From NCBI GenBank assembly GCA_023247725.1, contig JAHFFW010000014.1, positions 783 through 64,782 of the forward strand: a stretch of 64,000 nt of DNA, written 5' to 3'. Under the pieces are notes generated by a model, which did not search any database, was not told the DNA's origin, and saw only the letters and a program-made list of their open reading frames with translations. The stretch is from Candidatus Omnitrophota bacterium (GTDB taxonomy: Bacteria; Omnitrophota; Gorgyraeia; Zapsychrales; JAHFFX01). Positions within the stretch are counted from its first letter, which is position 1, and every line of letters starts with the position of its first letter. A program made the position numbers and the translations under genes. Positions 12,815-62,969 of the stretch are shown one piece after another.

Positions 12815-13016
12815 GCAGCGTAAGCGAATAGCGTTAGCGGATAGTGTTTTTGAATGGTGCGACAACTCTCTACCAAGAGTTAGAGGCTTATAAAAAGTCT
12901 TACAAACCGGTAAATGATGTGTATCAAGTGACGAATAAATTTCCTGAAGAGTCAAATATTGCTGATTCAGGCTGATGACTGATTATTAATATTCGCTATC
13001 CGCTATCCGCTGAAAA

Positions 13017-23577: not shown

Positions 23578-24369
23578 ATGACAAAAGAACCTGTTTCAGT
23601 TGACTTTTCAAACACCCATAATTTTTCGTCTCTTGCTAATGCTCCCATCGTCGAGTCTGTTATTGACATCCGCATCGCTTCCGACATCAAATGGGACGGG
23701 ACTGCTTTAAAGCAGGATTTACAGAACCGGCTTAAAGATTATCCCAAAATTGAGGAATTGAGAGAATTCCGATATCACATCTCCCCCATGCCCAACCCTG
23801 ATCAGGAAGCTAAACCCAAGACCGAGGACATGGGATGCGTAGGTCTAAAGTTGCACTCCATGAATCACCTTCACATTGTTCAATTCAATCAAGGCGCATT
23901 TGTTTTCAGTCGTTTAAAACCCTATGAGGACTGGAGTCAATTTACCGGCGAGGGATTGCGTTTGTGGAAAATATATCGAGAGATCTTTCGGCCGGTTGCG
24001 GTCCAGCGGCTTGGCGTGCGGTTTATCAATAGGATCCCGCTTCAGGCTGATTATGCCGGTCTCGAAGATTATTATAATAATCCCCCTAAAGAGCTTGCTG
24101 GATTAAATTGGCCGCAGGCAGGTTTTCTGACACATGATTTATTTCAAGTCCCAGGCACGGATTATGCGGTCAATATCATCAAGACCCGGGTGCCTCCCAA
24201 TGCCGCGGATAATGAACAAGGAGTGGTCTTGGATATCGATGTGTATTTTCAAACCCCATTTAATTATACCGACGAGGAATTGAATGCGCATTTGACCAAA
24301 ATGCGCTGGATCAAGAACAAGGTCTTTTTTAGTTGTCTAACCCCTGAATTAATTGCGAGATTAAGATAA
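23578..24369 (+). CDS. hypothetical protein (263 aa), first gene of AT-rich cassette
   Basis: Clean ORF in a lower-GC island. I recognise no motif. It dimly resembles a conserved hypothetical family, which I cannot verify. Confidence 0.5.
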   Translation: MTKEPVSVDFSNTHNFSSLANAPIVESVIDIRIASDIKWDGTALKQDLQNRLKDYPKIEELREFRYHISPMPNPDQEAKPKTEDMGCVGLKLHSMNHLHIVQFNQGAFVFSRLKPYEDWSQFTGEGLRLWKIYREIFRPVAVQRLGVRFINRIPLQADYAGLEDYYNNPPKELAGLNWPQAGFLTHDLFQVPGTDYAVNIIKTRVPPNAADNEQGVVLDIDVYFQTPFNYTDEELNAHLTKMRWIKNKVFFSCLTPELIARLR

Positions 24370-29770: not shown

Positions 29771-32700
29771 ATGAATCCGGTAACCTTTGTTGATGGCAAT
29801 GGGAAGAATGTGCAAACTTTACCCTCCGAAACACCGCCGGCTCCAGAACGAGTGCCGCTTAAGAAAGATCAATTACGGCAGATCCTCCAGGTCGCCAAGG
29901 CCATCCGGCAGGGAAATTTTTCCGCGCGCTTTCCCGTGGAAGAAGAGGGGATCGCGAGCGAAATCAGCGATGTCCTAAACGACATCCTGGAACTGAACGA
30001 AAATATGATCAAGGAATTCGCTCGGGTTTCGGTCATCGTCGGTCAGGAAGGCAGGCTCCCGGAACGCGCCTCCATTGGCCCGGTCAAAGGCGCCTGGGCG
30101 ACGGGTATGGAAGCCATCAATTCCCTTATCACCAATCTTGTTCAGCCGACGAACGAATTCGCCCGCGTCATCACCTCGGTCGCCAGAGGTGACTTGTCCG
30201 AGAAAATGCCTTTGGAAATCAATGGCCGGCTGCTCAAAGGCGAATATCTGCGCATCGCCACCATTGTCAATTCCATGTTTGACCAGCTGGGATTTTTCTC
30301 GTCGGAAGTTTCCCGTGTGGCCAAGGAAGTCGGTCTGGAAGGAAAATTGGGTGGTCAGGCCGATGTCAAGGGGGTCACGGGTGTCTGGAAGGATTTGACG
30401 GACAACGTTAACCAACTCGCCGGAAACCTCACGAACCAGGTTCGCAACATCGCCAAGGTTACGACCGCGGTTGCCAAAGGTGACTTGTCGCAGAAGATCA
30501 CCGTCGACGCAAAAGGTGAAATCTCCGAACTTAAAAATACCATCAACACCATGGTGGATCAGCTGAACTCCTTCGCGGCAGAAGTCACCCGTGTGGCCAA
30601 GGAAGTCGGTACAGAAGGAAAGCTCGGTGGTCAAGCGGACGTCAAGGGTGTTTCGGGGACGTGGAAAGATTTGACGGACAACGTCAACGTCTTGGCCGGA
30701 AACCTCACGAAACAAGTTCGTGGTATTGTCAAGGTCGTTACCGCGGTCGCCAATGGTGACCTACACCAGAAATTCGTTTTGGAAGCCAAAGGCGAGGTCG
30801 CTGCCCTTGCCGAAACGATCAATAACATGATTGATACCTTGAGTACCTTTGCCGATCAGGTCACCACCGTCGCAAGGGAAGTCGGTATCGAAGGTCAGCT
30901 CGGTGGTCAGGCAAAAGTTCCTGGTGCCTCCGGTGTGTGGAAGGACTTGACCGACAACGTCAACGTTATGGCGAGCAATCTCACCAAACAAGTCCGCGGC
31001 ATCGTCAAGGTCGTTACCGCGGTCGCCAATGGTGACCTGAGCGAAAAATTCGTTTTGGAAGCCAAAGGCGAGGTCGCCGCCCTCGCCGAAACGATTAACA
31101 GTATGACCGATACGCTGAGAACTTTCGCCGATCAGGTCACCACGGTCGCCCGCGAAGTCGGTATCGAAGGAAAACTCGGAGGTCAGGCCAAGGTTCCCGG
31201 GGCCTCCGGTATTTGGAAAGATTTGACGGACAACGTCAACCAGCTCGCTGGAAACTTGACCTCGCAGGTTCGCGCCATCGCCGAGGTTTCGACCGCCGTT
31301 ACCAAAGGTGACCTCACGCGTTCCATCACCGTTCAGGCGCAAGGAGAAGTCGCGGCCTTGAAAGACAACATCAATCAGATGATCGCGAATCTTAAGGACA
31401 CGACGCAGAAAAATATGGAACAGGACTGGTTGAAAACGAACCTCGCTCGCTTCTCCAGTATGATGCAGGGGCAAAGGAATCTGACCGCCGTCGCTCAGCT
31501 CATCATGTCAGAACTGACGCCTTTGCTCGACGCGCAGCACGGAACATTCTTCGTCGCAGCCCAAGAAGAAGGGGAAGTCACCTTGAATTTGATTGCCAGC
31601 TACGCCTTTACCGAGCGCAAGCATTTGTCCAACCGTTACCGTTTAAAGGAAAGCCTCGTCGGACAATGCGCCTTTGAGAAGAAGCGCATTTTGATTACGG
31701 AAACGCCGGGCGATTATATTTCCATCACCTCAGGTTTGGGTGAGTCGAAGCCCAAAAATATTCTTCTTCTGCCGGTTGTTTTCGAAGGGGATTTAAAGGC
31801 CGTCATCGAGCTCGCTTCGTTCAAACCGTTTAGCGCCAACTACCTGAACTTCCTTGACCAGCTCATGGACAGCGTCGGCGTTATCCTCAACATGATTTCC
31901 TCGACCATGAGAACCGAGGAACTTCTGCAAGAGGTCAAGCGTTCCAACGCCGAGCTCGAAGCCCAGGCCAAGGAACTCGAAGAGAAGGCCAAACTCCTCG
32001 AGTTGAAAAACAAGGAAGTTGAAATGGCCAGTTTGTCTTTGGAAGAGAAGGCTGAGCAGCTTTCCCTCATTTCTAAATACAAATCGGAATTTTTGGCCAA
32101 TATGTCGCACGAACTGCGCACCCCCTTAAACAGTTTGCTCATCCTTTCAAAAACACTGGCGGAAAATAAAGAAGATAACCTCAATCCCGAACAGGTCAAA
32201 TATGCCGCCACCGTTCACTCGACGGGCCAGGACCTTTTGACCCTCATCAATGAAATCCTCGATCTATCCAAGGTTGAAGCCGGAAAGATGTCCATCGAGC
32301 CGCAAGAAATCAAATTGCCGCAGATCTATGAATACCTGGAGCAGAATTTTCGGCCCCTGGCGGAACACAAGAATCTGGAATTTAAGATTAGCGAGGATCA
32401 GAATCTGCCCGATACCATTTTTACCGACAACAGCCGCTTGCAGCAGATCCTTAAGAATCTGTTGTCCAACGCCATTAAATTCACCGAAAAAGGAAGGGTT
32501 GTCCTGCAAATCAAGCTCGCCGAGAAGGGAAAAAAATTCGGCATCGAAAATCTGGACAAGAGCCCGAATGTGTTTGCCTTTTCCATCACCGATACCGGCA
32601 TCGGTATTCCTAAGGAAAAGCAAAAAATTATTTTCGAAGCCTTCCAGCAGGCAGATGGCACGACCAGCCGCAAGTATGGCGGAACGGGCCTGGGTCTGAC

Positions 32701-42633: not shown

Positions 42634-42710
42634 TCCGGTGGAAATCCTTCGTAAAGAACCAGCGATTTGAATTTTAAATAGGGAAGATAAAAACGCGCGG
42701 GGCGGGCCAG

Positions 42711-42835
42711 GCTTTACTGGCCTTTTCTTTACCAAAGACATTAAGGAAGCCAGCATAACGACCTTTCTTATCTTGGAAAAAGGCCGTATTGACTTCCACT
42801 TTATCTTTGGTAGTAGAAAGGTCAATAAGATGCGG
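42711..42835 (+). repeat. repeat family B, intergenic copy, nested inside a 17-bp inverted repeat (gcgcggggcgggccagg at 42696 / its complement at 42832-42848)
   Basis: Aligned by eye with 37605-37730. Flanking GC-rich inverted repeat read directly. Confidence 0.65.
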
Positions 42836-42925
42836 CCCGCCCCGCGCTTTTTATTCGCCCCGCCCCAAAGGCGGGGCGAAGGAGAATATTTTACCCACTG
42901 AACCTTTATGCTACAATGGACCCGT

Positions 42926-49491: not shown

Positions 49492-49598
49492 GCTGCTAAG
49501 CTCATGAGTTCCTATGCTCTTTTACTTGACCACTACTATCTTTTTTAAAACAACAGAAAAATTGTTCAACAGCTTAGGAGCTCAGTAGCTCAGCAGCT
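49490..49598 (+). promoter_or_regulatory. dyad unit: gagctgctaagctc ... gcttaggagctcagtagctcagcagct around an AT-rich ~60-nt spacer, ending 20 nt before the ATG at 49618
   Basis: Imperfect inverted repeat read directly. A related unit lies at 55546-55634. Confidence 0.4.
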
Positions 49599-49617
49599 AA
49601 TACAAACGAGGTCACCC

Positions 49618-49989: not shown

Positions 49990-50190
49990 TTTAACAAAAA
50001 ATCTTCCTTCTCTAGTATACTTATCTCACCCATACGAAGTCGTTCTCTCCTCTACCCAGAAGCCCTATTTCCCCTCGATGGTTGACTGTTGAAAGATTGG
50101 TGAAACGATCTTAACCCCAAGATCGTTTCTTAAAGGAATTTCTTTTAACGGTCCAAACCGAAAAATCAATAAGGCTTTTGGATCGAATTC

Positions 50191-50733
50191 ATGCCAGACC
50201 CTCATTTGCTTCAAGGCGCCATCCCCAGTGTCGAAGGTCAGAGACCAAAATTTTTGCCGGCCGTTGATCGGTTGCGTCTGGTTCGGCCTTTAGCCGGGCT
50301 CATCATTGTTGGCAATCTCGTTTATGCGGGATTGCGTCTCCAGCAAAAATTCGATTCGGCTTCTATTCCTGCGAAAGTTTTCTCACCGAGTGAAGTCCAT
50401 TCTTTATTTTCACCTAACGAACAAAGGCCATGGGAATACTATGAGGAATTGGTGGGCCGCCGGGATCTGTTCAATTTGGTTTCGCCCAATTCCGCTGACC
50501 AGGTTTTACCGGAACCTTCGACGACGGCGAGCATCCCGGAGCAAATTCTCAATTTGAAGGTGGTCGGGATCATTTTTGACCGGGTTCGGCAGGCGGTCCT
50601 CCAATCTGCCGACGGCAAGGAAACCTTTTTTGTGAAAGAAAACGAAGGCCTCAACGGCGCTACCATCCGTGATATTAAGGAAGACAAAGTGATCCTCGAA
50701 TTTCAGGGACAAACGATCGAACTCGCCAGATGA
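50191..50733 (+). CDS. GspC/PilP-like secretin-associated inner-membrane protein
   Basis: N-terminal TM helix, then a C-terminal beta domain (VVGIIFDRVRQAVLQSADGKETFFVKENEGL). Immediately upstream of the secretin gene, overlapping it. Confidence 0.5.
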   Translation: MPDPHLLQGAIPSVEGQRPKFLPAVDRLRLVRPLAGLIIVGNLVYAGLRLQQKFDSASIPAKVFSPSEVHSLFSPNEQRPWEYYEELVGRRDLFNLVSPNSADQVLPEPSTTASIPEQILNLKVVGIIFDRVRQAVLQSADGKETFFVKENEGLNGATIRDIKEDKVILEFQGQTIELAR

Positions 50734-52280
50734 AATCCATGACCACAGCCATGTCAATGCTGAAAACAAACCGCGGACGAATCATTTTTGCCGCCCTTGT
50801 GCTATTGCTGAATCCGGGGGTAGGGATAGGCGAGTCTTCCGCGCCCGGGCAGGCCGTTTTGGCTCCGGGGCAAAGTAAGCCCGCGCCAAGGCATCGGATT
50901 GATTTGTTGGATTTGAAGGAAATGGATACAACCGATGTCCTTAAACTCATTTCCCAGAAAACCGGTCTCAACATCATCGCCGGCAATAACGTCACCGGCA
51001 AGGTCACGATTTATTTGAAGGACGTGGCTGTCGATGAAGTCTTGGGGATTCTCTGTGATACCAATGACCTCGCCTATGTGGAAGAGGAGGGCCTTATCCA
51101 CGTCATGACCGCCGCCGATTACGAACGCAAATACGGCCGCCGATTTAACCCCAAGACTAGAAAAAAAATTGTCAAACTAAATGATGTCAGCGTTGCCCAC
51201 GTTCTGCCGGTTTTGGAAAAGCTCAAAGGGACCAATGGCGCCATCGTTTCCGATGAGCGCACGAACACCCTGGTTTTGACCGACACTGCCGAAACGATCG
51301 GGGAAATGGAAACCGTCCTCAAAGAGATCGATACTCCCCGAACGACCGAGGTCTTCGATCTCAACTATGCCCGCGCGGAAGAAATTTCCGAGAAGGTGGA
51401 GGCCTTATTGACCCCCAACGTCGGGTCGCTGCGGTTTGACAAACGCTCGAACAAGCTTTCGGTCACCGATATCCCGCCGAAGCTGAGCGAAATTGCCAAG
51501 GTTATCTCGGCCTTTGATGTGAAAGAAAAACAGGTCGCCATTGAGGCAAAGATCGTCCAGGTTATTTTAAGTGATCAATTTAAAATGGGGATTGATTGGC
51601 AGGCGATGGCCGCGAAATATCATAATTTGCGAATGGCCGGAAATTTGAGTTTGTTGTCTGACGTCGACAAAAAAGGAACGATCGCAATTGGAACGCTTTC
51701 CGATGACAGTTATTCGGTCATGATTCAGGCCCTTAAGGAATATGGCGACACCAATAATCTTTCCAACCCTCATATCATGGCCGTTAATAATGAGGAAGCC
51801 AAGATTTTAGTGGGTTCCACTGAGCCCTATGTCACGACGACAACGACCACGCCCGCGGCTGGGCCAGCCACCACCGCAGAGAGCGTTAATTTTATTGAAG
51901 TGGGGGTGAAGCTCTACGTGACGCCGATCATTCACAACGATGGCTATATCACGATGAAGATCAAGCCGGAGGTCAGCTCCGTGACCCGGACGATCGCGAC
52001 GGCCAATAATAATACGATTCCCGTCGTGGATACCTCAGAGGCAGAAACAACGGTCATTGCCAAGGATGGGGTGACGATCATCCTCGGCGGTTTGATCAAA
52101 GATGAGTTGGTCAATACGGATAAAAAAGTCCCTTTGTTGGGCGATGTTCCTTTCATGGGCGCGCTTTTTCGCAGCCAAAATCATTTGACGAGAAAAACCG
52201 AATTGGTCATCTTTTTAACGCCCCGGATTGTGACGGGAGATACGCCCGCTCTCTCGCGAGAGAAAGTCACACCACCGTGA
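50730..52280 (+). CDS. gspD: secretin (GspD/PilQ family)
   Basis: Signal peptide, N-domains, secretin core and the conserved C-terminus VPLLGDVPFMGALFRSQNHLTRKTELVIFLTPRIV. Confidence 0.85.
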   Translation: MKSMTTAMSMLKTNRGRIIFAALVLLLNPGVGIGESSAPGQAVLAPGQSKPAPRHRIDLLDLKEMDTTDVLKLISQKTGLNIIAGNNVTGKVTIYLKDVAVDEVLGILCDTNDLAYVEEEGLIHVMTAADYERKYGRRFNPKTRKKIVKLNDVSVAHVLPVLEKLKGTNGAIVSDERTNTLVLTDTAETIGEMETVLKEIDTPRTTEVFDLNYARAEEISEKVEALLTPNVGSLRFDKRSNKLSVTDIPPKLSEIAKVISAFDVKEKQVAIEAKIVQVILSDQFKMGIDWQAMAAKYHNLRMAGNLSLLSDVDKKGTIAIGTLSDDSYSVMIQALKEYGDTNNLSNPHIMAVNNEEAKILVGSTEPYVTTTTTTPAAGPATTAESVNFIEVGVKLYVTPIIHNDGYITMKIKPEVSSVTRTIATANNNTIPVVDTSEAETTVIAKDGVTIILGGLIKDELVNTDKKVPLLGDVPFMGALFRSQNHLTRKTELVIFLTPRIVTGDTPALSREKVTPP

Positions 52281-52295
52281 GCCTGCCATAGAGCC

Positions 52296-53984
52296 ATGCC
52301 CCAACGAACCCCGATTGGCCAGATTTTGGTCCAGGAACATTTCATCAGCGATCAAGACCTTCAACGCGCCCTCGCGGTGCAAACAAAGACCAAGGAACGC
52401 CTGGGAGAGATCCTGATCCAGCTGGGGGTGATGGCACATGACGCCCGGTTCTTTTCGTTATTGGCAAAACAAATGGGTGTGCCCTATGTTGATTTAAAAG
52501 AAACCGAAATCCCTTCGGCGGTTTTGGCCTGCGTTCCGGCGCAGTTGGCCAGCCATTATAAGATCATTCCGGTTCAATCTCACAATGGCCAACTGGCGCT
52601 GGCCACCAGTGACCCCTGGGATATTTTGAAGCTCGACGAGTTAAGTGCGGCGCTGCGCTGCGAAGTAAGGCCTGTCCTCGCCGATGAAAAAGCCATCCTC
52701 GAATCGATTCGTAAATATTACGGTTTGGGAGCCGAGACGATCGAACGGATGATGGCGCAAGGCCAGGGCCGTTCCGGTGAAGAAGTCCAGGTCAAAGACA
52801 TCGAAGAGCTCACGACCGAGGCCTCCATCGGGGCTTTCCTCAATCAGCTTATTTTGGAGGCCTATCGCGAACGGGCGACCGATATTCACATCGAACCCTG
52901 CGAAAACGAATTGCAGGTGCGCTACCGCATCGATGGGTTCCTACGCGATGCCAAGGTTCCCCAAAATATCCGCCACTTCAAGGATCCGATCAACTCCCGG
53001 ATCAAAATCCTGTCCAATTTGAATATTGCGCAGCGGCGTTTGCCCCAGGACGGCCGATTCAAGGTGAAGGTGGGCGATACGCAGCTGGATCTGCGGGTTT
53101 CATTTCTTCCCACCGCATTTGGAGAAAGCGCGGTCATTCGCATTCTCAATGCCAACCAGCTCTTTGATATTGAGCGGCTGGGGTTGGCCTCGCGAGAATT
53201 AAAAATTCTGGACGAATTGATCAAGAAACCCCATGGCCTTATTTTTGTCACCGGCCCGACGGGAAGCGGGAAAACGACGACCTTGTATTCCTGCCTCTCT
53301 CGGGTCAATAGTGCGGAACGCAAAATCCTGACAATCGAAGACCCGGCTGAATATCAGCTTGCCGGCATCACTCAGATCCAGGTAAATCCTGCTATTGGTC
53401 TCACCTTTGCGCAGGGATTGCGTTCGATGCTGCGTCATGATCCGGATATCATGATGGTCGGCGAGGTCCGCGATCACGAGACCGCACAGATTGCGATTCA
53501 GGTGGCCTTGACCGGTCATTTAGTTTTTTCGACGCTGCATACCAACGATGCCGCGAGCGCCGTGACGCGGCTTTTGGATATGGGGGTTGAACCGTATCTG
53601 ATTTCGAGTTCGGTCATCGGCTTCATTGCCCAGCGCCTGGTGAGACTGATTTGCCCGCACTGCAAAGAACCGCGAGTGCTTTCGCCGGAGGTCTTGGCTG
53701 ATTTTGATCTGGACCAAAACCCGGGGCGGGTTTCGACGTTTGTAGGAAAAGGTTGCCGCATGTGCCAGTCCACCGGTTATTTGGGCCGACAGGGGATTTA
53801 TGAATTTTTGATTTTGAATGAAGACATGCAAAAATTGATTCACCGCCGGGCATCGGCCAGTGAGATCCGAACGAAGGCGATGGAAAAGGGAATGAAAACA
53901 TTGCGCCAGGATGGCTGGGAAAAAATTAAGATGGGCTCGACCACACCAGAAGAAGTGATTCGGGTGACGGCGGGGGATTTTTGA
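52296..53984 (+). CDS. gspE: GspE/PilB-family secretion ATPase
   Basis: N-terminal T2SSE_N domain, Walker A GPTGSGKTT, Asp and His boxes, and the tetracysteine motif CPHC...CRMC. Confidence 0.9.
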   Translation: MPQRTPIGQILVQEHFISDQDLQRALAVQTKTKERLGEILIQLGVMAHDARFFSLLAKQMGVPYVDLKETEIPSAVLACVPAQLASHYKIIPVQSHNGQLALATSDPWDILKLDELSAALRCEVRPVLADEKAILESIRKYYGLGAETIERMMAQGQGRSGEEVQVKDIEELTTEASIGAFLNQLILEAYRERATDIHIEPCENELQVRYRIDGFLRDAKVPQNIRHFKDPINSRIKILSNLNIAQRRLPQDGRFKVKVGDTQLDLRVSFLPTAFGESAVIRILNANQLFDIERLGLASRELKILDELIKKPHGLIFVTGPTGSGKTTTLYSCLSRVNSAERKILTIEDPAEYQLAGITQIQVNPAIGLTFAQGLRSMLRHDPDIMMVGEVRDHETAQIAIQVALTGHLVFSTLHTNDAASAVTRLLDMGVEPYLISSSVIGFIAQRLVRLICPHCKEPRVLSPEVLADFDLDQNPGRVSTFVGKGCRMCQSTGYLGRQGIYEFLILNEDMQKLIHRRASASEIRTKAMEKGMKTLRQDGWEKIKMGSTTPEEVIRVTAGDF

Positions 53985-53986
53985 AT

Positions 53987-54226
53987 AGACGTAGGAAGTA
54001 GGACGTCCACTCCTCGCTGAGGCGCAGCGTCGTTTGGACGTGGGACGTCTGCGACCGCCGTCCCTCAGCTTTAACTAAGGACTGCGGTCGCTCGGACGTA
54101 GGACGTAAATCAGGATTGGTATTCAAAATTTCGTAATTAATATAATAATCAAAATCAATCGTCCCACGTCCTTCGTCCTAGCGAGCTACGCCAAAGGCAG
54201 GCGAGCGGACGTCCAACGTCCCACGT
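53987..54226. repeat. array of GGACGT-type heptad motifs in both orientations with nested dyads (intergenic gspE-gspF)
   Basis: taggacgtcc, tggacgtgggacgtc, cggacgtaggacgt, cgtcccacgtcc and cggacgtccaacgtcccacgt, read directly. Confidence 0.6.
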
Positions 54227-54246
54227 AACCTGAGCTTTATTCCAAC

Positions 54247-55494
54247 ATGACCCACTACACCTACCGAGCCAAAACCGGACCTTCCCAAATCCAAACCGGA
54301 GAACTCGAGGCCGTCGACGAAAAAGAGGCGGTGCAAAAGATCATGCAGCGGGGATTCATTCCCCTGGATGTGGAGGTTCGCCGTTTGCCGACGAAATCGC
54401 CCAAGGCCTCTTCATCGTTTTTCTTCTGGACTAGAATAAAGTCTGCCGGCCGCGCGGTTAGGCAGGAAGACCGATCTGCGTTTTTAAGGCCATTGAATGA
54501 TTTGATCGACGCCGACGTGCCGCTGCTAAAAGCTCTGAGTCTCACGCTGGCCCAAACTCGCAAACCTCCGGTGAAAGACATTTTGAGCCGGGTGACGACC
54601 GCGGTTCAAAACGGTGATTCCCTGTCCGAGGCATTAAAAAATTTCCCAGAACTGTTTCCGGCTTATGTGGTCACGATGATCCGCATCGGAGAAATGAGCG
54701 GCCACCTGAAAATCGTTTTGGCGCGTCTTGCGGAATATGCGGAAAAAGAAGACGAGTCCCGCCGGAAATTAACGATGAGCCTGATTTATCCCGCGATCGT
54801 TTTGGGCATGGGTTTCCTGACGGTTTTTATCCTGTTGACCTTTGTGATTCCGAAGCTGGCAGTCATGTTTGCGGACATGGGGCAACGATTGCCCTTCGTC
54901 ACCCGAATCCTCATTGCGATCAGTCAAATCTGCTCGCGCTATTGGGAGATTTTGATCGCCGCCGTTGCCGTGTTTATTTTGGGGTGGAAACGCTTTGCCA
55001 GTTTTCCGCAAGGCCAGCGAACACTGGATCGTCTCATTTTGAAAATCCCTTTTTGGGGAACGTTTGTGCGAATCCAAAATCTCGAACGGCTGGTGCGCAT
55101 GCTGGGCCTTTTGTTGGGCAATGGCGTGCCATTAACGACGGCCTTGGAGGAGATTGAAATGATCAGCGATAACGAGGTGATCAGGTTCGAAGTCAAAGCC
55201 CTCAGCCAGAAGATTATTGCAGGAGAACGTTTCGCCTCGGCCTTGGCGTCAGGAACTTTCTTAAGTCCGGAACAGATCGGAATGATGAGCATAGGAGAGG
55301 AGACCGGCCATCTGGATTCGGCATTAAACAAAGTTGCCCAACAATTGGAGACCCAGTCCGAACGATTGGTGCGGACCTCGACGACGTTCATGGAACCGGT
55401 CCTCATTCTCATCATCGGCGCGATCGTGGGGTTTATGGTGGTGGCGCTCTTGATGCCGGTGTTTGAGATGAATGTGGGGAGTGCGGGGAGTTAG
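54247..55494 (+). CDS. gspF: GspF/PilC-family inner-membrane platform protein
   Basis: Two T2SSF repeats, each with TM segments. Confidence 0.85.
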   Translation: MTHYTYRAKTGPSQIQTGELEAVDEKEAVQKIMQRGFIPLDVEVRRLPTKSPKASSSFFFWTRIKSAGRAVRQEDRSAFLRPLNDLIDADVPLLKALSLTLAQTRKPPVKDILSRVTTAVQNGDSLSEALKNFPELFPAYVVTMIRIGEMSGHLKIVLARLAEYAEKEDESRRKLTMSLIYPAIVLGMGFLTVFILLTFVIPKLAVMFADMGQRLPFVTRILIAISQICSRYWEILIAAVAVFILGWKRFASFPQGQRTLDRLILKIPFWGTFVRIQNLERLVRMLGLLLGNGVPLTTALEEIEMISDNEVIRFEVKALSQKIIAGERFASALASGTFLSPEQIGMMSIGEETGHLDSALNKVAQQLETQSERLVRTSTTFMEPVLILIIGAIVGFMVVALLMPVFEMNVGSAGS

Positions 55495-55545
55495 TGGAGT
55501 TATTAAAATAAAAACGCCTTCGATTCTTAACAAGAAGGTTGTTAT

Positions 55546-55634
55546 GCTGCTGAGTTGCTAAGCTCCAGATCCAGTTTAATTAAATCCATCAAAATGTCGT
55601 TTTCCTCAATTGTCACTAAGGAGCTTAGCAGCAC
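55546..55634 (+). promoter_or_regulatory. dyad unit gctgctgagttgctaagctcc ... ggagcttagcagcac around an AT-rich spacer, ending at the ATG of the pseudopilin gene
   Basis: 11-bp inverted repeat tgctaagctcc/ggagcttagca, read directly. Confidence 0.4.
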
Positions 55635-56024
55635 ATGAGCTTAAAAGCTAAAAACGCCTTCACCCTCCTCGAACTTCTCCTGACCATCATGCTCCTCGGT
55701 ATCTGTCTGGTCTCCGTCATCCGCGGTTTGCTGACCAATGCCAGGGCCATACAAATGGCCCAGGAATATACCGGCGCCATCAGCGCGGCGGATCAGGTGA
55801 TGTTTGAACTGTTGCAAACGCAGGCTTCGGCGAGGATCCCGTTAGAAGGTGAATTGAACAATCAGGCCGGTTATCGATATCGTCTGTATTTGCAGGATCC
55901 CGCTGATCACCGACGGCAGCTTCCCTTGAAGGAGGTCCGGTTAGAGATCCGCTGGCAGGCGGGTCACAGGGATCAAGGGATTTCTTTTTCAACCTATTTG
56001 ATCGAACCCGTTCCGAAAAGTTAA
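55635..56024 (+). CDS. type II secretion pseudopilin (GspG/H-like) with prepilin-type N-terminal methylation motif
   Basis: KNAFTLLELLLTIMLLGI: prepilin cleavage/methylation signal followed by a hydrophobic helix. Confidence 0.7.
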   Translation: MSLKAKNAFTLLELLLTIMLLGICLVSVIRGLLTNARAIQMAQEYTGAISAADQVMFELLQTQASARIPLEGELNNQAGYRYRLYLQDPADHRRQLPLKEVRLEIRWQAGHRDQGISFSTYLIEPVPKS

Positions 56025-56028
56025 AGCG

Positions 56029-56739
56029 ATGCCGAGATCATCTTCCTTTCTGCCTCGAGGTTTCACCTTAGTTGAGATGCTCGTCGTCATTTCTATCCTG
56101 GCCATGGCGGGTCTAAGTATTTCCACCACGTTTGCCGCCGGAATGAAACTCCATCGCCGCAGCCAGCAGAGTCTCAAAATACAATTGGAGGCTGGCATCG
56201 CGCTGGAGCGGATGTCCATGGATCTGGAAAATATGGTGTTTTATGATTTTTCCGGATCTTATCCGCAATTGCAGGCGTGTTCTACCGACGGATCTTCGAT
56301 CATTTTTTTGCAGGCCACGGGTAAAGGCTTAAAGGCCATCCGCTATTTCTTAGAGCCGCGCAACCAGGTGCAGCAAACGGGGACAACGATGGGAAAGCAA
56401 ACTTCAAAAAATGTGAAGGTGGTTAATTTCTTTTCTAAAGGAAACCCATCATGGGATTTGATTCGACAGGAGAGTGACTTTGTCAGTTTCCTTGAAAAAG
56501 GGTTTACCTCGGCTGGGGCTGAGGTCTTAAGCGAAGATCTGCCAGAGAATGGTTTGACATTCAAATTTGCCGAACTGCAAGGAGACGGCCAGATTTCCTG
56601 GCTGGCAGAGTGGAACAAAAGCAGTCTGCCATTGGGAGTGAGGGTTGAGTTGATACTTGCGGATTCTTCGTCGGGAACCGTGCGTTTTAGCCGGGAGGTG
56701 CTGATTCCGGTCGGCGGGCTGGCGGAAAGAGGGCGTTGA
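56029..56739 (+). CDS. pseudopilin with prepilin-type N-terminus
   Basis: RGFTLVEMLVVISILAM prepilin motif. Confidence 0.6.
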   Translation: MPRSSSFLPRGFTLVEMLVVISILAMAGLSISTTFAAGMKLHRRSQQSLKIQLEAGIALERMSMDLENMVFYDFSGSYPQLQACSTDGSSIIFLQATGKGLKAIRYFLEPRNQVQQTGTTMGKQTSKNVKVVNFFSKGNPSWDLIRQESDFVSFLEKGFTSAGAEVLSEDLPENGLTFKFAELQGDGQISWLAEWNKSSLPLGVRVELILADSSSGTVRFSREVLIPVGGLAERGR

Positions 56740-56743
56740 TGGT

Positions 56744-56900
56744 TACGTGGGACGAAGGACGTTCGCTCGCCCCACCGACGGCGGGACTCGCTCGGACGAG
56801 GGACGTTAGAATCAATGACGCGCGACGATTCACGCTTCACAAAGGACGCTTCACGTCTTAGCACCTCGTATCTCGTGAAGCGCATCTCGTCTGACCGGTG
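56744..56900. repeat. second GGACG-motif array plus direct/inverted cgcttcacg repeats (intergenic, upstream of gspK-like)
   Basis: acgtgggacgaaggacgtt, cggacgagggacgtt, and cgcttcacg/cgtgaagcg. Confidence 0.55.
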
Positions 56901-56923
56901 ATCCGGCAATCGGGTAATTCGGA

Positions 56924-58003
56924 ATGCTTAAAGTTCAATCAAACAACTCAGCTTCCATCCTCCTCATCACGCTTTGGGTCCTCATGATCTTATCGATCCT
57001 GGCGATTTCTTTGGGACGAGGGGCCAATACCCAGTTGATGCTGGCCGAGAGGATGGTCAACAAAACCAAAGCCCGCTACTTGACCTGGGCGGGATTTCAC
57101 TATGCGCTCGTTCATATCGCGCGGGAAGAAAAGGACCATCCGGTTCCCGCCGATGATCTTTTCCGCTGCGGCGTTCAATTCAAGAAAACCGAGTCGCCGG
57201 AAGAGATTTTTGGAAATGTCAAAATTCCCGGCGGCCATTTCGATGTCGCTTACGACTGCGAAGAAAGCCATTCGCCGGACTCTTCCTCAGTAAAAAGCCG
57301 CTATGGTTTCAGGGATGAAGAACGAAAATTGAATCTCAATGCGCTCACCGTCACGAACGATTCGGTTTTTAAGGAACTCTTGGTCGTCCTCGGCGCCGAT
57401 GAAACAACCGCCGCCACGATCGCTGCCTCGAGCGTCGATTGGCACGATGAGGATGATCGCGTGAGCGCCGCCCCCTTTGGAGAAGAAGGGGTCTGGTACG
57501 AATCCCGTCGGCAACCGTATCAGTGCAAAAATCGGCCGTTCGATCAGGTGGATGAACTTTTGTTAGTGAAGGGAATGACCCTGGAGATTTTTGAAAAGAT
57601 TCAACCGTTCGTGACGGTCTTCCCTAAAAATGCCCCGCGGTTAACCATCAATTTTGCCACGGCCTTCCCCGAAGTTCTGATCGCCCTGGCCAACAGTATG
57701 GCCTTTGCCACCAACACGGATCGCAATGACGCACAAGGCCTGGTCAAAAAACTTTTGCATGATCGCGCCGGAGATGATGGCCAAGAGGCCACCTCCGATG
57801 ACCGCCAACCGGATTTCGATTTGGCAGGGTTTAATGAAAAGGAAAGGTCAATCTTTTTGGCCATGGCCCCGTATTCAACGAGGACCTCGAGATTTATCCG
57901 GATCTCGGTCCATAGCGGCCTCGAGGCGAGCGCGGTGCGTTCTTGCGTTGAAGCGGTGGTGGATCGCGAGTCCCTGAATGTCGTGGCCTGGAGAAGGCAG
58001 TGA
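56924..58003 (+). CDS. GspK-like minor pseudopilin
   Basis: N-terminus ASILLITLWVLMILSILAISL is typical of GspK. Large periplasmic domain. Confidence 0.6.
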   Translation: MLKVQSNNSASILLITLWVLMILSILAISLGRGANTQLMLAERMVNKTKARYLTWAGFHYALVHIAREEKDHPVPADDLFRCGVQFKKTESPEEIFGNVKIPGGHFDVAYDCEESHSPDSSSVKSRYGFRDEERKLNLNALTVTNDSVFKELLVVLGADETTAATIAASSVDWHDEDDRVSAAPFGEEGVWYESRRQPYQCKNRPFDQVDELLLVKGMTLEIFEKIQPFVTVFPKNAPRLTINFATAFPEVLIALANSMAFATNTDRNDAQGLVKKLLHDRAGDDGQEATSDDRQPDFDLAGFNEKERSIFLAMAPYSTRTSRFIRISVHSGLEASAVRSCVEAVVDRESLNVVAWRRQ

Positions 58004-59415
58004 TGAAGAAACATATTTTGATCAGTCTTGAATTGAATGACGTGGATCTGAAGATCGTCCAAGGGGTCGGCCATGGCACGGCCTGTGCCTTGAACCACGT
58101 GTCCGCTTTTTCCTGTTCCCAGGATGATGACACCGAAATCGCGCGCACCCTTCAACAAAGGATTCGCGCCAGCGGCGGGAATTCCCGCGAGGTGGTGGCC
58201 TGCATCCCAAGACGATTTTTTATTCTCAAACAAATGGTTTTGCCTGGTGTGATGGAAGGCGAATTGCGGCGGATGATTGGTTTACAAATTTTGGGGCAGT
58301 TGCCATATCAAGCAGAAGAGGTCGTGTGGGATTTCACGATCTTGGAAAAATTGCCGTCGGGATACACCCGAATCTTGGTCATGGTCATCGCCACGCCGGT
58401 CCTGGAGCGTTATACAAAGATACTTTCATCGGCCGGAATTCGTCCGCAAACATTGACCATGAGTTCTTTCGGACTCTGGGGCTGGCACCGGCTGCAGGAG
58501 TCGGGCGCCGCAAAGCCAGATTCCGGCGTCCAGCTTTTGATCAGTGTCGATGCCGCCCGCACCGAATTCTGTTTTTGTGATCTGGAACATTTTTATTTTT
58601 CCCGCAGCGTGAAGGGGGGGTTTGGAAAGTTTGACCGCCAGGCGTTCACCCAAACCCTCAAGGAAACCTTGGAAATTTACACCAGGGAAAAACTGGGCCC
58701 GGATCCGGCTCGCGGGAAATTGATTTCTCCTTCCTTAATCTTGAAGGAGATGGTACAAGAATTCTGTGCTTACCTTCAACTTTTTTTGACCTGGCATGAT
58801 CCCTTGAAGGACCTGCCGGAAAAGTTCAATCAGTTGTCGGCCGAATCGGTTCCCGCCGAAACCTCGTTTGCCGTCGGAATCGGTCTTTTGGGAATAGGGC
58901 AAGAACAGATGGGAAATTTTTTGCCTCCGCTTTCTAAGGGTTTTGGACTTCGATCATTCTTCAAAAATTTCTTTCTTCTTATGCTTGTTTATTTGTCGTT
59001 CGTCATGGCCCTGGGGGTGGGGCCTTACCGATTGAAAAGACAATGGGCCTCGCTGCAACAGGAGATGGATGGGCTGCAGCCGTCGCTCAAGGCGATTGAG
59101 GATGAAGAAGTCCTTTGGCGAGTCCTGCAGGAAGAACAAAACGAGGAAAAACCGGTGATCGAATTGATCGATGAATTATATCGCCTGACGCCCCCAGACA
59201 TCATTTACAGCAGTCTGCATATGGATCCGCAAGGGGAGGTGATTCTTCAGGGGATTTCCAAAACCAGCACAGAAGTTAATCAATTCCAAAGCAACCTCGT
59301 AGGCTCGTCCTTGTTAATGAATATTTCTTTACAACAAGCAAGCAAACAGATGAGCCCATTGGGTGAAGTAACGCATTTTTCGTTCTCCGGTCATTTGATC
59401 TCCCAAACGCCATGA
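58000..59415 (+). CDS. GspL-like protein (cytoplasmic PilM/actin-like domain + TM + periplasmic PilN-like domain)
   Basis: Architecture only: a cytoplasmic domain, a single TM helix (FLLMLVYLSFVMALGVG) and a periplasmic tail. Confidence 0.5.
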   Translation: MMKKHILISLELNDVDLKIVQGVGHGTACALNHVSAFSCSQDDDTEIARTLQQRIRASGGNSREVVACIPRRFFILKQMVLPGVMEGELRRMIGLQILGQLPYQAEEVVWDFTILEKLPSGYTRILVMVIATPVLERYTKILSSAGIRPQTLTMSSFGLWGWHRLQESGAAKPDSGVQLLISVDAARTEFCFCDLEHFYFSRSVKGGFGKFDRQAFTQTLKETLEIYTREKLGPDPARGKLISPSLILKEMVQEFCAYLQLFLTWHDPLKDLPEKFNQLSAESVPAETSFAVGIGLLGIGQEQMGNFLPPLSKGFGLRSFFKNFFLLMLVYLSFVMALGVGPYRLKRQWASLQQEMDGLQPSLKAIEDEEVLWRVLQEEQNEEKPVIELIDELYRLTPPDIIYSSLHMDPQGEVILQGISKTSTEVNQFQSNLVGSSLLMNISLQQASKQMSPLGEVTHFSFSGHLISQTP

Positions 59416-59966
59416 AAATTTCCGCCCCATCAGCGCTTTTGAATCGTCGAGAAAAAACTATTGCCTGGATTTGTGCATTGGTCGTTGGAATCACTGCTCA
59501 TTGGCAATGGGTGGATGAACCTCTGCGAGGTCAGGCGAAAAAACTCCAGGATTTGATTGAGGGTGGCGTCCGCATTCAGAAAAGGGATTTACTCCGTATC
59601 GAAGCGGCGAAGGCCTTACGCCCCCGGTACGAGCAAGAACTGCAGCCCTTGCGCCAGCAGACTTCCGACGAGGAAGAAATGTCTACTTTGCTCACGCAAG
59701 TCGAAGGCCTGACCAACGAATTGAATCTCAAGATCACGGAAATGAAGCCGCAGAAAGTTCATCAATTCCCCGCGCACAAAATTTTTTCGATCAATCTGGC
59801 CCTAGATGGAACGCTCGTGGACATCGTGCATTTTTTGCATAAAATAAAAGAAGATCACTACCGGTTGAGGGTCGAAGAATTTCTTTTGGAATCAAAATTG
59901 CCGGCCCAGCCCAATCTCACGTGTCGGATCCAGCTTTCCCGCCTCTTGATTAAACCTGATCCGTAG
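59412..59966 (+). CDS. GspM/PilO-like bitopic protein
   Basis: N-terminal TM helix and a coiled-coil periplasmic domain. Last gene of the operon. Confidence 0.45.
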   Translation: MKISAPSALLNRREKTIAWICALVVGITAHWQWVDEPLRGQAKKLQDLIEGGVRIQKRDLLRIEAAKALRPRYEQELQPLRQQTSDEEEMSTLLTQVEGLTNELNLKITEMKPQKVHQFPAHKIFSINLALDGTLVDIVHFLHKIKEDHYRLRVEEFLLESKLPAQPNLTCRIQLSRLLIKPDP

Positions 59967-60105: not shown

Positions 60106-60239
60106 GTAGTTTCAGCGCAAAATTTTTTGGAATTCCAGAATTCCTGTTGACAACTATCAGGCTAAGAGGTTAAATAAGTCACCTTTTAACTCGACGGTAA
60201 CCTCCATAACCTGGGCAACCTTGATAACCTATTCCACCC

Positions 60240-62812: not shown

Positions 62813-62828
62813 AAAACTGGAAGTTGCT

Positions 62829-62888
62829 GCGGGGGCTTTTCGCCCCGCCGAGAAAATTTGCCGGGGCGAAAAGCCCCCGCGTTTTTTA
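62829..62888 (+). terminator. rho-independent terminator (19-bp stem gcgggggcttttcgccccg/cggggcgaaaagcccccgc + T6)
   Basis: Perfect long hairpin followed by gtttttt, read directly. Confidence 0.75.
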
Positions 62889-62969
62889 GAATTTATAATC
62901 TTCCTCTAATTATTTTCTAATCCCCGTCAGCCATAATTATAAAAGGATCCAATTCATGAGGAGGATTTC

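Follow-up and report, generated by a model that had tools for sequence, protein, structure and literature searches.

The type II secretion system (T2SS) operon in a 64-kb stretch of a Candidatus Omnitrophota contig (the whole of which we refer to as the window) carries arrays of GGACG heptads in two intergenic gaps, one between the ATPase gene gspE and the platform protein gene gspF (locus 1, 53987-54228) and one between a pseudopilin gene and a gspK-like gene (locus 2, 56743-56809). We propose that these arrays are probably units of a selfish cassette of the intervening sequence (IVS) type that contain no open reading frame (ORF), that belong to a dispersed hairpin repeat and that are co-transcribed with the operon. 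In its full form, such a cassette holds a gene for a ~125-aa PF05635/TIGR02436 four-helix-bundle protein, known as S23p from 23S rRNA IVSs, within the loop of a long stem, whose arms are built of tandem 7-8-nt repeats with a G-rich arm 5' of the ORF and its C-rich complement 3'. The observations that follow establish that the arrays belong to a repeat family, that this family is dispersed between genes, that its hairpin covaries, that it is linked to PF05635 and that its ORF-bearing and ORF-less copies are related by deletion.

A greedy ORF map assigns the window 57 genes, 90% coding content and 28 gaps of at least 60 nt. The two gaps in question measure 262 nt (gspE-gspF) and 184 nt (pseudopilin-gspK), and have GC contents of 52% and 59% compared with ~36-42% for most of the others. 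An initial annotation of this DNA had described GGACG motifs in both orientations between the ATPase and platform genes, and locus 1 indeed holds 13 such pentamers (six on the plus strand, seven on the minus strand) where ~0.36 would be expected from the remaining window (Poisson P ~2e-16). The second array of the same motif upstream of the gspK-like gene is equally real, as are the nested dyads GCGACCGC/GCGGTCGC and GCTGAGG/CCTCAGC (inverted pairs I10 and I14) and the dyad CGCTTCACG/CGTGAAGCG, whose halves lie at 56847-56855 and 56874-56882. Over the whole window the bare pentamer is not enriched (113 found, 119 expected); the signal is one of clustering in heptad register and not of pentamer abundance. 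Allowing up to two mismatches, GGACGTNGGACGT matches the window 12 times against 3.06 expected, a count that none of 100 shuffles reached, and 11 of these matches fall inside the two gaps. Furthermore, every strict heptad pair in the window lies within these two of the 28 gaps, and two heptad pairs spaced 21-51 nt apart are found four times against an expectation of 0.00.

The repeat to which the arrays belong is a unit of ~55-65 nt, comprising two to three GGACGWN heptads, CGCTC, a small variable hairpin, TCGCT and two more heptads. The strongest single evidence that the arrays are copies of a dispersed element comes from a covariance model, R1, constructed from 36 units of a common 53-nt length that were all drawn from other assemblies, with no window sequence included. 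Run unfiltered over the 64 kb, R1 produced exactly three significant matches, all at the array positions, with scores of 61.4, 55.8 and 45.0 bits; the next best match scored 12 bits.

Locus 1 is an inverted doublet of this unit around an AT-rich centre, and locus 2 is a solo unit. The outer left arm of the doublet, copy A (53987-54049, plus strand; R1 45.0 bits, E 4e-10), reads AGACGTA GGAAGTA GGACGTC, followed by a degenerate centre (54008-54035) and GGACGTG GGACGTC. Next to it in the left arm stands a side hairpin, GCGACCGC(CGTCC)...(GGAC)GCGGTCGC (54050-54093, plus strand; pair I10, 13 nt, 92% complementary), which ends in TCGCTC ahead of the next heptad pair, forms a branch in the minimum free energy structure and gives R1 only a weak partial match (54072-54107, 11.9 bits). 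The inner left heptad pair, GGACGTA GGACGTA (54094-54107, plus strand), matches GGACGTNGGACGT exactly and pairs with 54166-54184 (pair I2, 19 nt, 89% complementary). The AT-rich centre of 51 nt (54108-54158) is the loop of the composite palindrome and occupies the position where related cassettes hold a PF05635 ORF. On the far side, the inverted right arm, copy B (54159-54228, minus strand; R1 61.4 bits, E 2e-14 at 54165-54228), reads on its own strand TTACGTG GGACGTT GGACGTC CGCTCGCC-hairpin-CTCGCTA GGACGAA GGACGTG GGACGA, fits the strict unit pattern and pairs with 53989-54012 (pair I1, 24 nt, 83% complementary). The predicted fold of locus 1 as single-stranded RNA is a single long branched hairpin of ~240 nt (-109.3 kcal/mol, z = -7.4).

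The solo unit of locus 2, copy C (56743-56809, plus strand; R1 55.8 bits, E 6e-13 at 56743-56807), reads ACGTG GGACGAA GGACGTT CGCTCGCC-CCACCGACGGCGGG-ACTCGCTC GGACGAG GGACGTT; it also fits the strict pattern and has an inner hairpin of -6.5 kcal/mol. Copies B and C align over their full length, 54228-54159 on the minus strand being collinear with 56745-56809 on the plus strand, with the common layout ACGTG, GGACGWW, GGACGTY, CGCTCGCC, a 14-15-nt GC hairpin, CTCGCTN, GGACGAR and GGACGT. When the whole locus 2 gap is folded, the result is no better than for shuffled sequence (z = 0.16), and only the small hairpin of the unit is supported. Copy C is adjoined on the plus strand by a second repeat type (56829-56882), made up of TTCACGN heptads (TTCACGC TTCACAA AGGACGC TTCACGT) and the dyad CGCTTCACG/CGTGAAGCG. 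In one of the loci retrieved from other genomes (L012), arrays of two kinds, (CTTCGTG)n and (GGACGTG)n, adjoin without a gap, so heptad families of different kinds can be neighbours. A search of the window against Rfam returned nothing at gathering score and no rRNA, and a permissive search of 53800-57100 gave two snoRNA matches at chance level (E ~4.6).

Outside the window the unit was sought with two patterns. The loose one, applied to one genome per species, returned at least 117 stretches and proved too loose, most matches being plain tandem heptad arrays. These (L004-L120) are built of (GGACGAT)n, (GGACGAC)n, (GGACGTG)n or (GGACGAG)n, also of GGACGTT and GGACGAA, and occur in Chloroflexota, Bacteroidota, Planctomycetota, Lentisphaeria and others; pure GGACGNN arrays are often found on several contigs of one metagenome-assembled genome (MAG), as in Chloroflexia SMAG_U8985, Caldilineaceae CHLO-10 and Lentisphaeria STF1_46. 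Such pure arrays frequently adjoin other heptad families, and a small hairpin is sometimes embedded in them (L101: ...GGACCCGAGTACTCGGGAT...). Several loose-pattern matches share the heptads-hairpin-heptads layout of the window, and the Omnitrophota MAG nzgw301 carries on two contigs the complete inverted-doublet architecture of locus 1. One of these doublets (L016) is 87.7% identical to the right arm in the window over 57 nt, and the other (L094) sits exactly between the stop codon of one gene and the ribosome-binding site of the next.

The strict unit pattern found 63 stretches in JGI metagenomes, where we estimate that fewer than one would be expected; the assemblies Ga0154667 and Ga0164318 contributed many of them, some of these in tandem clusters. 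Seven loci, judged from their sequences and common ORFs, were excluded as high-GC false positives (L121, L132, L143, L147, L159 and L177, which are one soil locus in six samples, and L128), leaving 62 distinct units, two window copies among them. The unit is present at 55 distinct sites in other assemblies, namely Omnitrophota MAGs and unclassified metagenome contigs. Its distribution is intergenic: 52 of 69 occurrences lie outside greedy ORFs in DNA that is 83% ORF, and the flanking genes are co-directional in 33 of the 37 cases that could be resolved. In Ga0154667 (L125-L171), more than 20 units are flanked by a conserved ATAGCACGTTACGT / GATTCGATATAGCACGTTA context together with the heptads TAGCTCA, GGTAGTA and CTGATGA, which suggests nested or composite repeat landscapes. 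A predicted viral contig, IMG/VR UViG_3300046710_000334, has two solo units between genes (L184, 5624-5660; L185, 9078-9114); a phage origin of the unit was considered and set aside, with these two solo units on one viral contig being all that pointed to it.

Covariation gives further support to the unit as a folded element. In the 36 units of 53 nt, the 7 nt that lie between CGCTC and TCGCT occur in 17 sequence versions, 14 of which keep two complementary pairs around a 3-nt loop (e.g. GCTTCGC, CCTTCGG, ACTTCGT, GTTCCAC, ATTTCAT). The proposed hairpin joins ACGTYC to GGACGW and GC to GC in addition to the two variable pairs; 95.3% of its alignment cells are paired, versus 26-34% when the 3' partners are slid, and it shows 27 double-sided changes versus 7.5 in shuffles, with none of 500 shuffles having as many. 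Most other alignment columns were fixed by the search pattern and are therefore uninformative. At this place the longer variants, the three window copies among them, carry GC-rich hairpins of unrelated sequence (-6 to -19 kcal/mol), and related inverted doublets fold at -55 to -116 kcal/mol. The initial annotation had offered a structured RNA element within the polycistronic transcript as one of its two interpretations. That idea comes nearer to the observations and is partly supported by the long predicted hairpin at locus 1 and the covarying hairpin in the unit, but the element is a dispersed repeat of the IVS / inverted-repeat type and not an RNA dedicated to the operon.

The units lie beside unrelated housekeeping genes: in a Pfam scan, the 150 ORFs nearest to the units matched 238 families. 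Common metabolism and transport account for most of the 25 families seen most often, which include no secretion, regulator or transposase family; PF05635 is the sole unusual recurrent family in that set. Clustering of the neighbouring ORFs singled out the same family, '23S rRNA-intervening sequence protein' in Pfam and 'four helix bundle protein' in TIGR02436, at ~20 nt from the unit in several loci. In an iterated search of the 5578 ORFs encoded by the 1.23 Mb of fetched loci, eight PF05635 ORFs were recovered, seven of them within ~105 nt of heptad pairs and five with inverted arms on both sides. Related copies that combine a PF05635 ORF with arms of the unit type are L139, L161, L168, L131, L081, L189 and L191. 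The order in L139 is the stop codon of the upstream gene, a unit (+), a 127-aa ORF, a unit (-), and then the ribosome-binding site and ATG of the downstream gene, which is the same placement as at window locus 1. Furthermore, the ORF-less copy L156 (200 nt) equals the ORF-bearing copy L161 (640 nt) minus nt 66-461, with 95-100% identity on both sides. This match indicates that ORF-less copies are internal-deletion derivatives of ORF-bearing cassettes, or the reverse.

To counter the ascertainment bias of a motif-first collection, searches were also run from the protein. The S23p/four-helix-bundle family proved very large, with at least 7999 protein clusters at E <= 1e-10, and conserved to an unusual degree. 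Its members closest to the L161 protein are 70-80% identical; the few of these with source names belong to Omnitrophota, Planctomycetota (Scalindua included) and Aureabacteria. Many of the closest PF05635 proteins (P0121-P0240) lie on contigs shorter than 2 kb, which fits a cassette that is repeated, breaks assemblies and probably moves horizontally. In the metagenome loci collected in this way, heptads of the GGACG type stand directly beside the ORF in five of five and are inverted on both sides in three. One such cassette, from Scalindua, is placed between two genes of a resistance-nodulation-division (RND) efflux pump, and another, from Omnitrophota, between two sugar-nucleotide genes.

The association extends to plasmids and rRNA genes. 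In the plasmid collection, 23 of the 26 records matching a PF05635 protein are cyanobacterial, and among six plasmid and rRNA regions the ORF lies beside 7-8-nt tandem arrays in five, with clearly inverted arms in four. The arrangement is (GGGAGCA)3.4-ORF-C-rich complement in Nostoc sp. MS1 and (AGCAGGGG)6-ORF-(CCCCCTGC)8.5 in N. punctiforme, and comparable arrays accompany the PF05635 ORF in Leptolyngbya, Oscillatoria and Azospirillum lipoferum. The Azospirillum locus is a true 23S IVS because it lies inside the large subunit (LSU) rRNA (714 bits, model positions 768-1755). Its arms, CAGAGGACGGATGACAGAGGACGGAGGACAGA and ATCCGTCCTCTGTCTTCTGTCATCCGTCTTCTG, are made of GGACGGA/GGACAGA heptads and share their GGACG core with the window arrays. 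The cases with two arms number 12, and in every one the purine/G-rich arm lies 5' of the ORF and the C-rich arm 3'; window locus 1 has this G-rich 5', C-rich 3' polarity on the strand of the T2SS genes. A 50-kb part of the N. punctiforme plasmid pNPUN02 (L205) contains 19 arrays of period 7 or 8, including an ORF-less inverted doublet at 4469-4579 (GAGCAGGG x5.4 / CCCCCCTG x4.1) whose octamer it has in common with a PF05635 cassette 19 kb away, at 23752-24321. An annotated DUF3854 coding sequence encloses the doublet, and the cassette immediately precedes a paralogous DUF3854 gene. Repeat stems do not enclose every member of the PF05635 family: on the Pseudanabaena galeata plasmid pPg_04 (L204), a four-helix-bundle gene directly follows cas1-cas2 without clear heptad arms.

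The window itself contains what appears to be a decayed cassette of this class, at 12815-13012 on the plus strand, delineated from Tandem Repeats Finder arrays, inverted pair I9, tblastn, Pfam and folding. It fills the gap between two plus-strand ORFs (12815-13016), beginning right after the stop codon of the first. Its left arm (AGCGAAT/AGCGTTA/GCGGATA) and right arm (TATCCGC x3) pair in the predicted fold, and between them lies a truncated reading frame, ...YQELEAYKKSYKPVNDVYQVTNKFPEE..., followed by stop codons. The segment 12874-12996 matches residues 8-43 of the L161 four-helix-bundle protein (tblastn E 0.002), and the top Pfam match of the remnant is PF05635 (E 0.0042, profile positions 1-28, below the gathering score). 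Taken together, this evidence implies that the genome carries at least one decayed cassette of the class, made of different heptads.

We are now able to propose how such arrays may have arisen and what they may do. Cassettes of this kind lie in the short space that separates a stop codon from the following ribosome-binding site, in the orientation of their host genes, and also in 23S rRNA. Window locus 1, with the same polarity, would be a copy whose ORF was lost or never present. It would be transcribed together with gspE and gspF, and, if it behaves as the stems of 23S rRNA IVSs do, its ~240-nt hairpin would probably be cut by RNase III, which would split the transcript between the two cistrons. 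The element itself would be selfish or close to neutral, and any influence on how strongly gspE and gspF are expressed relative to each other would be no more than a by-product.

Several observations weigh against this interpretation. There is no PF05635 gene in or next to either flagged locus, and the 51-nt centre of locus 1 contains neither an ORF nor a recognisable ORF remnant and gives no tblastn match to a PF05635 protein; the step in which locus 1 lost its ORF is drawn by analogy with L156 and L161. The heptads of the 12.8-kb remnant differ from GGACGWN, and its protein matches are weak (E ~0.002-0.004). No target-site duplication is visible by eye at the junctions of the window copies, L016, L094, L139, L153 or L156, and no transposase recurs among the 150 neighbouring ORFs, so we infer mobility from the distribution of the copies only. 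Within the 64 kb both loci fall in one operon, 2.5 kb apart, which would be rare under purely random scatter. In addition, sense and antisense fold energies show no asymmetry across 16 co-directional doublets (10 versus 6, mean difference -0.6 kcal/mol), and in the window the antisense strand folds better than the sense strand; selection specifically at the RNA level is thus not demonstrated.

Of the other explanations, the one that survives best takes the unit for a repetitive extragenic palindromic (REP) sequence and the doublet for a REPIN, a pair of inverted REPs, mobilised in trans by a REP-associated tyrosine transposase (RAYT, an IS200/IS605-like Y1 transposase); the PF05635 link would then be secondary, for example through cassettes inserting into or next to REPs. 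The resemblance is considerable. Like REPs, the units are short imperfect palindromes, strictly intergenic and present several times per assembly; they occur as singlets, tandem clusters and inverted doublets that form a larger hairpin, and the lack of target-site duplication is as expected of IS200/IS605-type elements. Many of the heptads are GGACGTA, and GTAG, which these contain, is the tetranucleotide that adjoins REPs in E. coli. A test of this foot position, however, found it to vary freely (GTAG, GTGG, GTTG, GAAG, GAGG, GATG), with no tetranucleotide conserved. Moreover, no RAYT appears among the recurrent neighbours: the Y1 transposase family (PF01797) is not among the Pfam families matched by at least two of the 150 neighbouring ORFs, and none was seen in the window, where only part of the ORFs was scanned. 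The tandem-heptad arms are shared with rRNA IVSs and are not a REP feature, and the gene carried by related copies does not encode a transposase. Finally, REPs are usually lineage-specific, whereas this unit is shared by Omnitrophota MAGs, numerous unclassified metagenome contigs and a viral contig. On balance we regard a REP origin as unlikely.

It is also conceivable that the pentameric four-helix-bundle protein, or another trans-acting host factor, binds the heptads in DNA or RNA; by titrating or recruiting it, the T2SS arrays would modulate the operon. The tight and polar association of PF05635 with its arms in several phyla, each with different repeats, does resemble co-evolution of a protein with its site. 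In diversity-generating retroelements, the protein Avd forms a basic pentamer and acts on nucleic acid. PF05635 is homologous to Avd (PMC10053308). Nevertheless, translation of the S23p ORF in Coxiella is itself improbable (PMC4990558), an intact PF05635 gene is missing from the window, and the heptads differ between cassettes of one genome (GGACGWN versus GCGGATA), so that several specificities would be needed. A binding array therefore seems quite improbable as the explanation of the window loci.

Plain slippage, in which the arrays would be a heptameric microsatellite with no identity as an element, can draw on the long pure (GGACGAT)n, (GGACGAC)n and (GGACGTG)n arrays found in many phyla, and on the report that heptameric intergenic repeats are over-represented in bacteria, an excess left unexplained there with polymerase slippage as a proposed cause (PMC4692102). 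The window arrays, however, have only two to three heptads each, arranged as inverted arms, and are embedded in a conserved non-repetitive CGCTC-hairpin-TCGCT unit that covaries in other genomes. Slippage may lengthen the arms, but it leaves the unit unexplained, and as a full account we consider it very unlikely.

Comparison with related secretion operons bears on the other proposal of the initial annotation, a multi-site operator. The nearest GspF homologues are only 42% identical and annotated as Omnitrophica. In the best-covered relative (L001/L002), 14 nt separate gspE from gspF, and 0-6 nt lie between gspK and the gene in front of it; a third relative (L003, a distant member of Omnitrophica) has gaps of 130-170 nt between its pseudopilin genes, with no GGACG heptad pair in them. 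The arrays are missing from both operons and are thus not a conserved feature of this operon type, an outcome that the initial annotation had itself named as refuting its interpretation. The L003 gaps at 1385-1548, 1978-2116 and 2693-2866 contain strong unrelated hairpins of -40 to -70 kcal/mol, and palindromes may often fill operon junctions in this group. Scans of 53800-57100 for promoters gave counts equal to those in shuffled sequence, the only promoter-like match in the centre of locus 1 being a weak sigma-70-like TTCAAA-16-AATAAT (9/12), at chance level (2 found, 2.3 expected); scans of the same region for terminators also equalled shuffled counts and placed none in either array gap. An operator for a dedicated T2SS transcription factor, perhaps with an internal promoter in the AT-rich centre, would account for the recurrence of half-sites, in either orientation, within two gaps of a single operon and for the sigma-70-like match, but it can hardly be right, given that the homologous operons examined do without the arrays, that the same unit stands beside unrelated genes elsewhere, that no regulator or co-conserved transcription factor family recurs among the 25 families listed for the 150 neighbouring ORFs, that the promoter-like match is no better than chance, and that the 7-nt spacing, which had been taken to be related to the helical turn, in fact places neighbouring heptads ~240 degrees apart on a 10.5-bp turn and hence on different helix faces.

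The selfish-cassette interpretation of the window loci may have a broader counterpart, which we put forward tentatively and at rather less than even chances: that PF05635 genes with inverted 7-8-nt arms form one widespread class of selfish cassettes at operon junctions and rRNA genes in Omnitrophota, Planctomycetota, Bacteroidota, Cyanobacteria and Proteobacteria, and that their ORF-less derivatives explain at least part of the excess of heptameric repeats (STRR, GGGAATC, GGACGWN; STRR denotes short tandemly repeated repetitive sequences). If this is true, the repeat arms are functional ends of the element, serving as a stem for excision by RNase III, as a site bound by the pentameric protein or in both ways, and the window copy is a fossil of a cassette invasion inside a secretion operon. 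To our knowledge, the S23p/four-helix-bundle family has no known function, and heptameric intergenic repeats, noted since ~1990, have gone without an explanation; the two would gain one common, experimentally testable hypothesis, given that each lineage sampled has genes of the family in stem loops built of such repeats, with one polarity throughout, and that ORF-less copies have these arms too. A search for the heptad strings in open-access papers and preprints returned no relevant paper, and the link between PF05635 and 7-8-nt arms looks general and undescribed in that literature, although this assessment is provisional. For the window itself the result is mostly deflationary, in that the motif is not a regulator site of the secretion system. 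In annotation, both gaps should be treated as repeat-element insertions that possibly cut the operon transcript into separately stable pieces. The finding in the window is in itself fairly ordinary, and the part worth following is the general link between PF05635 and the repeat arms.

The genes surrounding the arrays are those that the initial annotation had named. All on the plus strand, the T2SS operon comprises a gspC-like gene (50191-50733), the secretin gene (50730-52280), the ATPase gene gspE (52296-53984), the platform protein gene gspF (54247-55494), two pseudopilin genes (55635-56739), the gspK-like gene (56924-58003) and PilM/N- and PilO-like genes (58000-59966). The 140-nt gap between gspF and the first pseudopilin gene holds a 25-nt inverted repeat, TTATGCTGCTGAGTTGCTAAGCTCC / GGAGCTTAGCAGCACATGAGCTTAA (55542-55644), the right arm of which overlaps the pseudopilin start codon. 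Elsewhere in the window, 42634-42907 is a long intergenic palindrome of unrelated sequence, AAAAACGCGCGGGGCGGGCC...GGCCCGCCCCGCGCTTTTT (-115 kcal/mol, z = -7.7), followed by a GC hairpin, CGCCCCGCC..GGCGGGGCG, and the gaps at 62813-62969, 49990-50190, 49492-49617 and 48472-48975 fold far better than shuffled sequence. A 276-nt tandem repeat of 2.3-2.4 copies, ~80% identical, lies in a coding region at 30601-31314 and presumably represents a repeated protein domain. Short arrays are found at 1855-1890 (AGGGAATT x4.5) and 60198-60230 (TAACCTCGA x3.7).

Finally, the element can be set against known intergenic repeats and IVSs. The Correia elements of Neisseria (also called Neisseria miniature insertion sequences, NEMIS) and the enterobacterial repetitive intergenic consensus (ERIC) are imperfect palindromes of 100-250 nt that lie between co-transcribed genes and fold in the mRNA, where RNase III can cut palindromes of this type and thereby alter how stable the neighbouring cistrons are. 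Defined terminal inverted repeats with a TA duplication mark the Correia elements, which are genus-specific. As in repeats of the miniature inverted-repeat transposable element (MITE) type, short forms here arise from longer ones by internal deletion (L156 versus L161, if the deletion ran in that direction) and the termini are inverted; unlike in MITEs, the junctions show no duplication, and a four-helix-bundle protein, not a known transposase, is what the longer form encodes.

A second comparison is with the STRR sequences of heterocystous cyanobacteria, such as the (GGGGAYT)n heptameric repeats of Nostoc, and with the 186 (GGGAATC)n arrays of Xanthomonas campestris, among which there are 70 cases of two close convergent arrays (PMC4692102). 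The window arrays resemble both in being tandem intergenic 7-nt units, often in convergent pairs, and STRR and (GGGAATC)n are transcribed; the PF05635 genes of cyanobacterial plasmids likewise lie between inverted 7-8-nt arrays. They differ in heptad sequence, in having only two to three units per array and in their non-repetitive hairpin core, and the STRR and (GGGAATC)n literature cited here makes no link to PF05635 cassettes. Xanthomonas array 15 lies between bccP (XCC0517) and XCC0516 and overlaps the start of XCC0516 (PMC4692102, supplementary table). XCC0516 is a PF05635 protein with a pentameric structure, 2GSC (PMC10053308, PMC4990558), a connection that is not drawn in PMC4692102.

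The closest parallel is with the 23S rRNA IVSs that carry an S23p ORF in Coxiella, Leptospira, Brucella and Azospirillum, in which complementary termini form a long stem around the PF05635 ORF. In Coxiella, the terminal stem of the IVS measures 28 bp and its ORF is preceded by three tandem GACAGAT heptamers; RNase III from either Coxiella or E. coli excises this IVS in vitro, with the cut placed where the first repeat begins (PMC4990558). Locus 1 shares the complementary termini, the long-stem fold and the tandem heptamers within the stem, and ORF-less and decaying versions exist in both cases. Unlike rRNA IVSs, the window copies lie in junctions of an mRNA operon and not in rRNA helix 45, the window having no rRNA; both loci lack an ORF, and their arms have the extra conserved CGCTC-hairpin-TCGCT module. 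The window copies are accordingly not an rRNA IVS; what we propose is the same class of element at a non-rRNA site.

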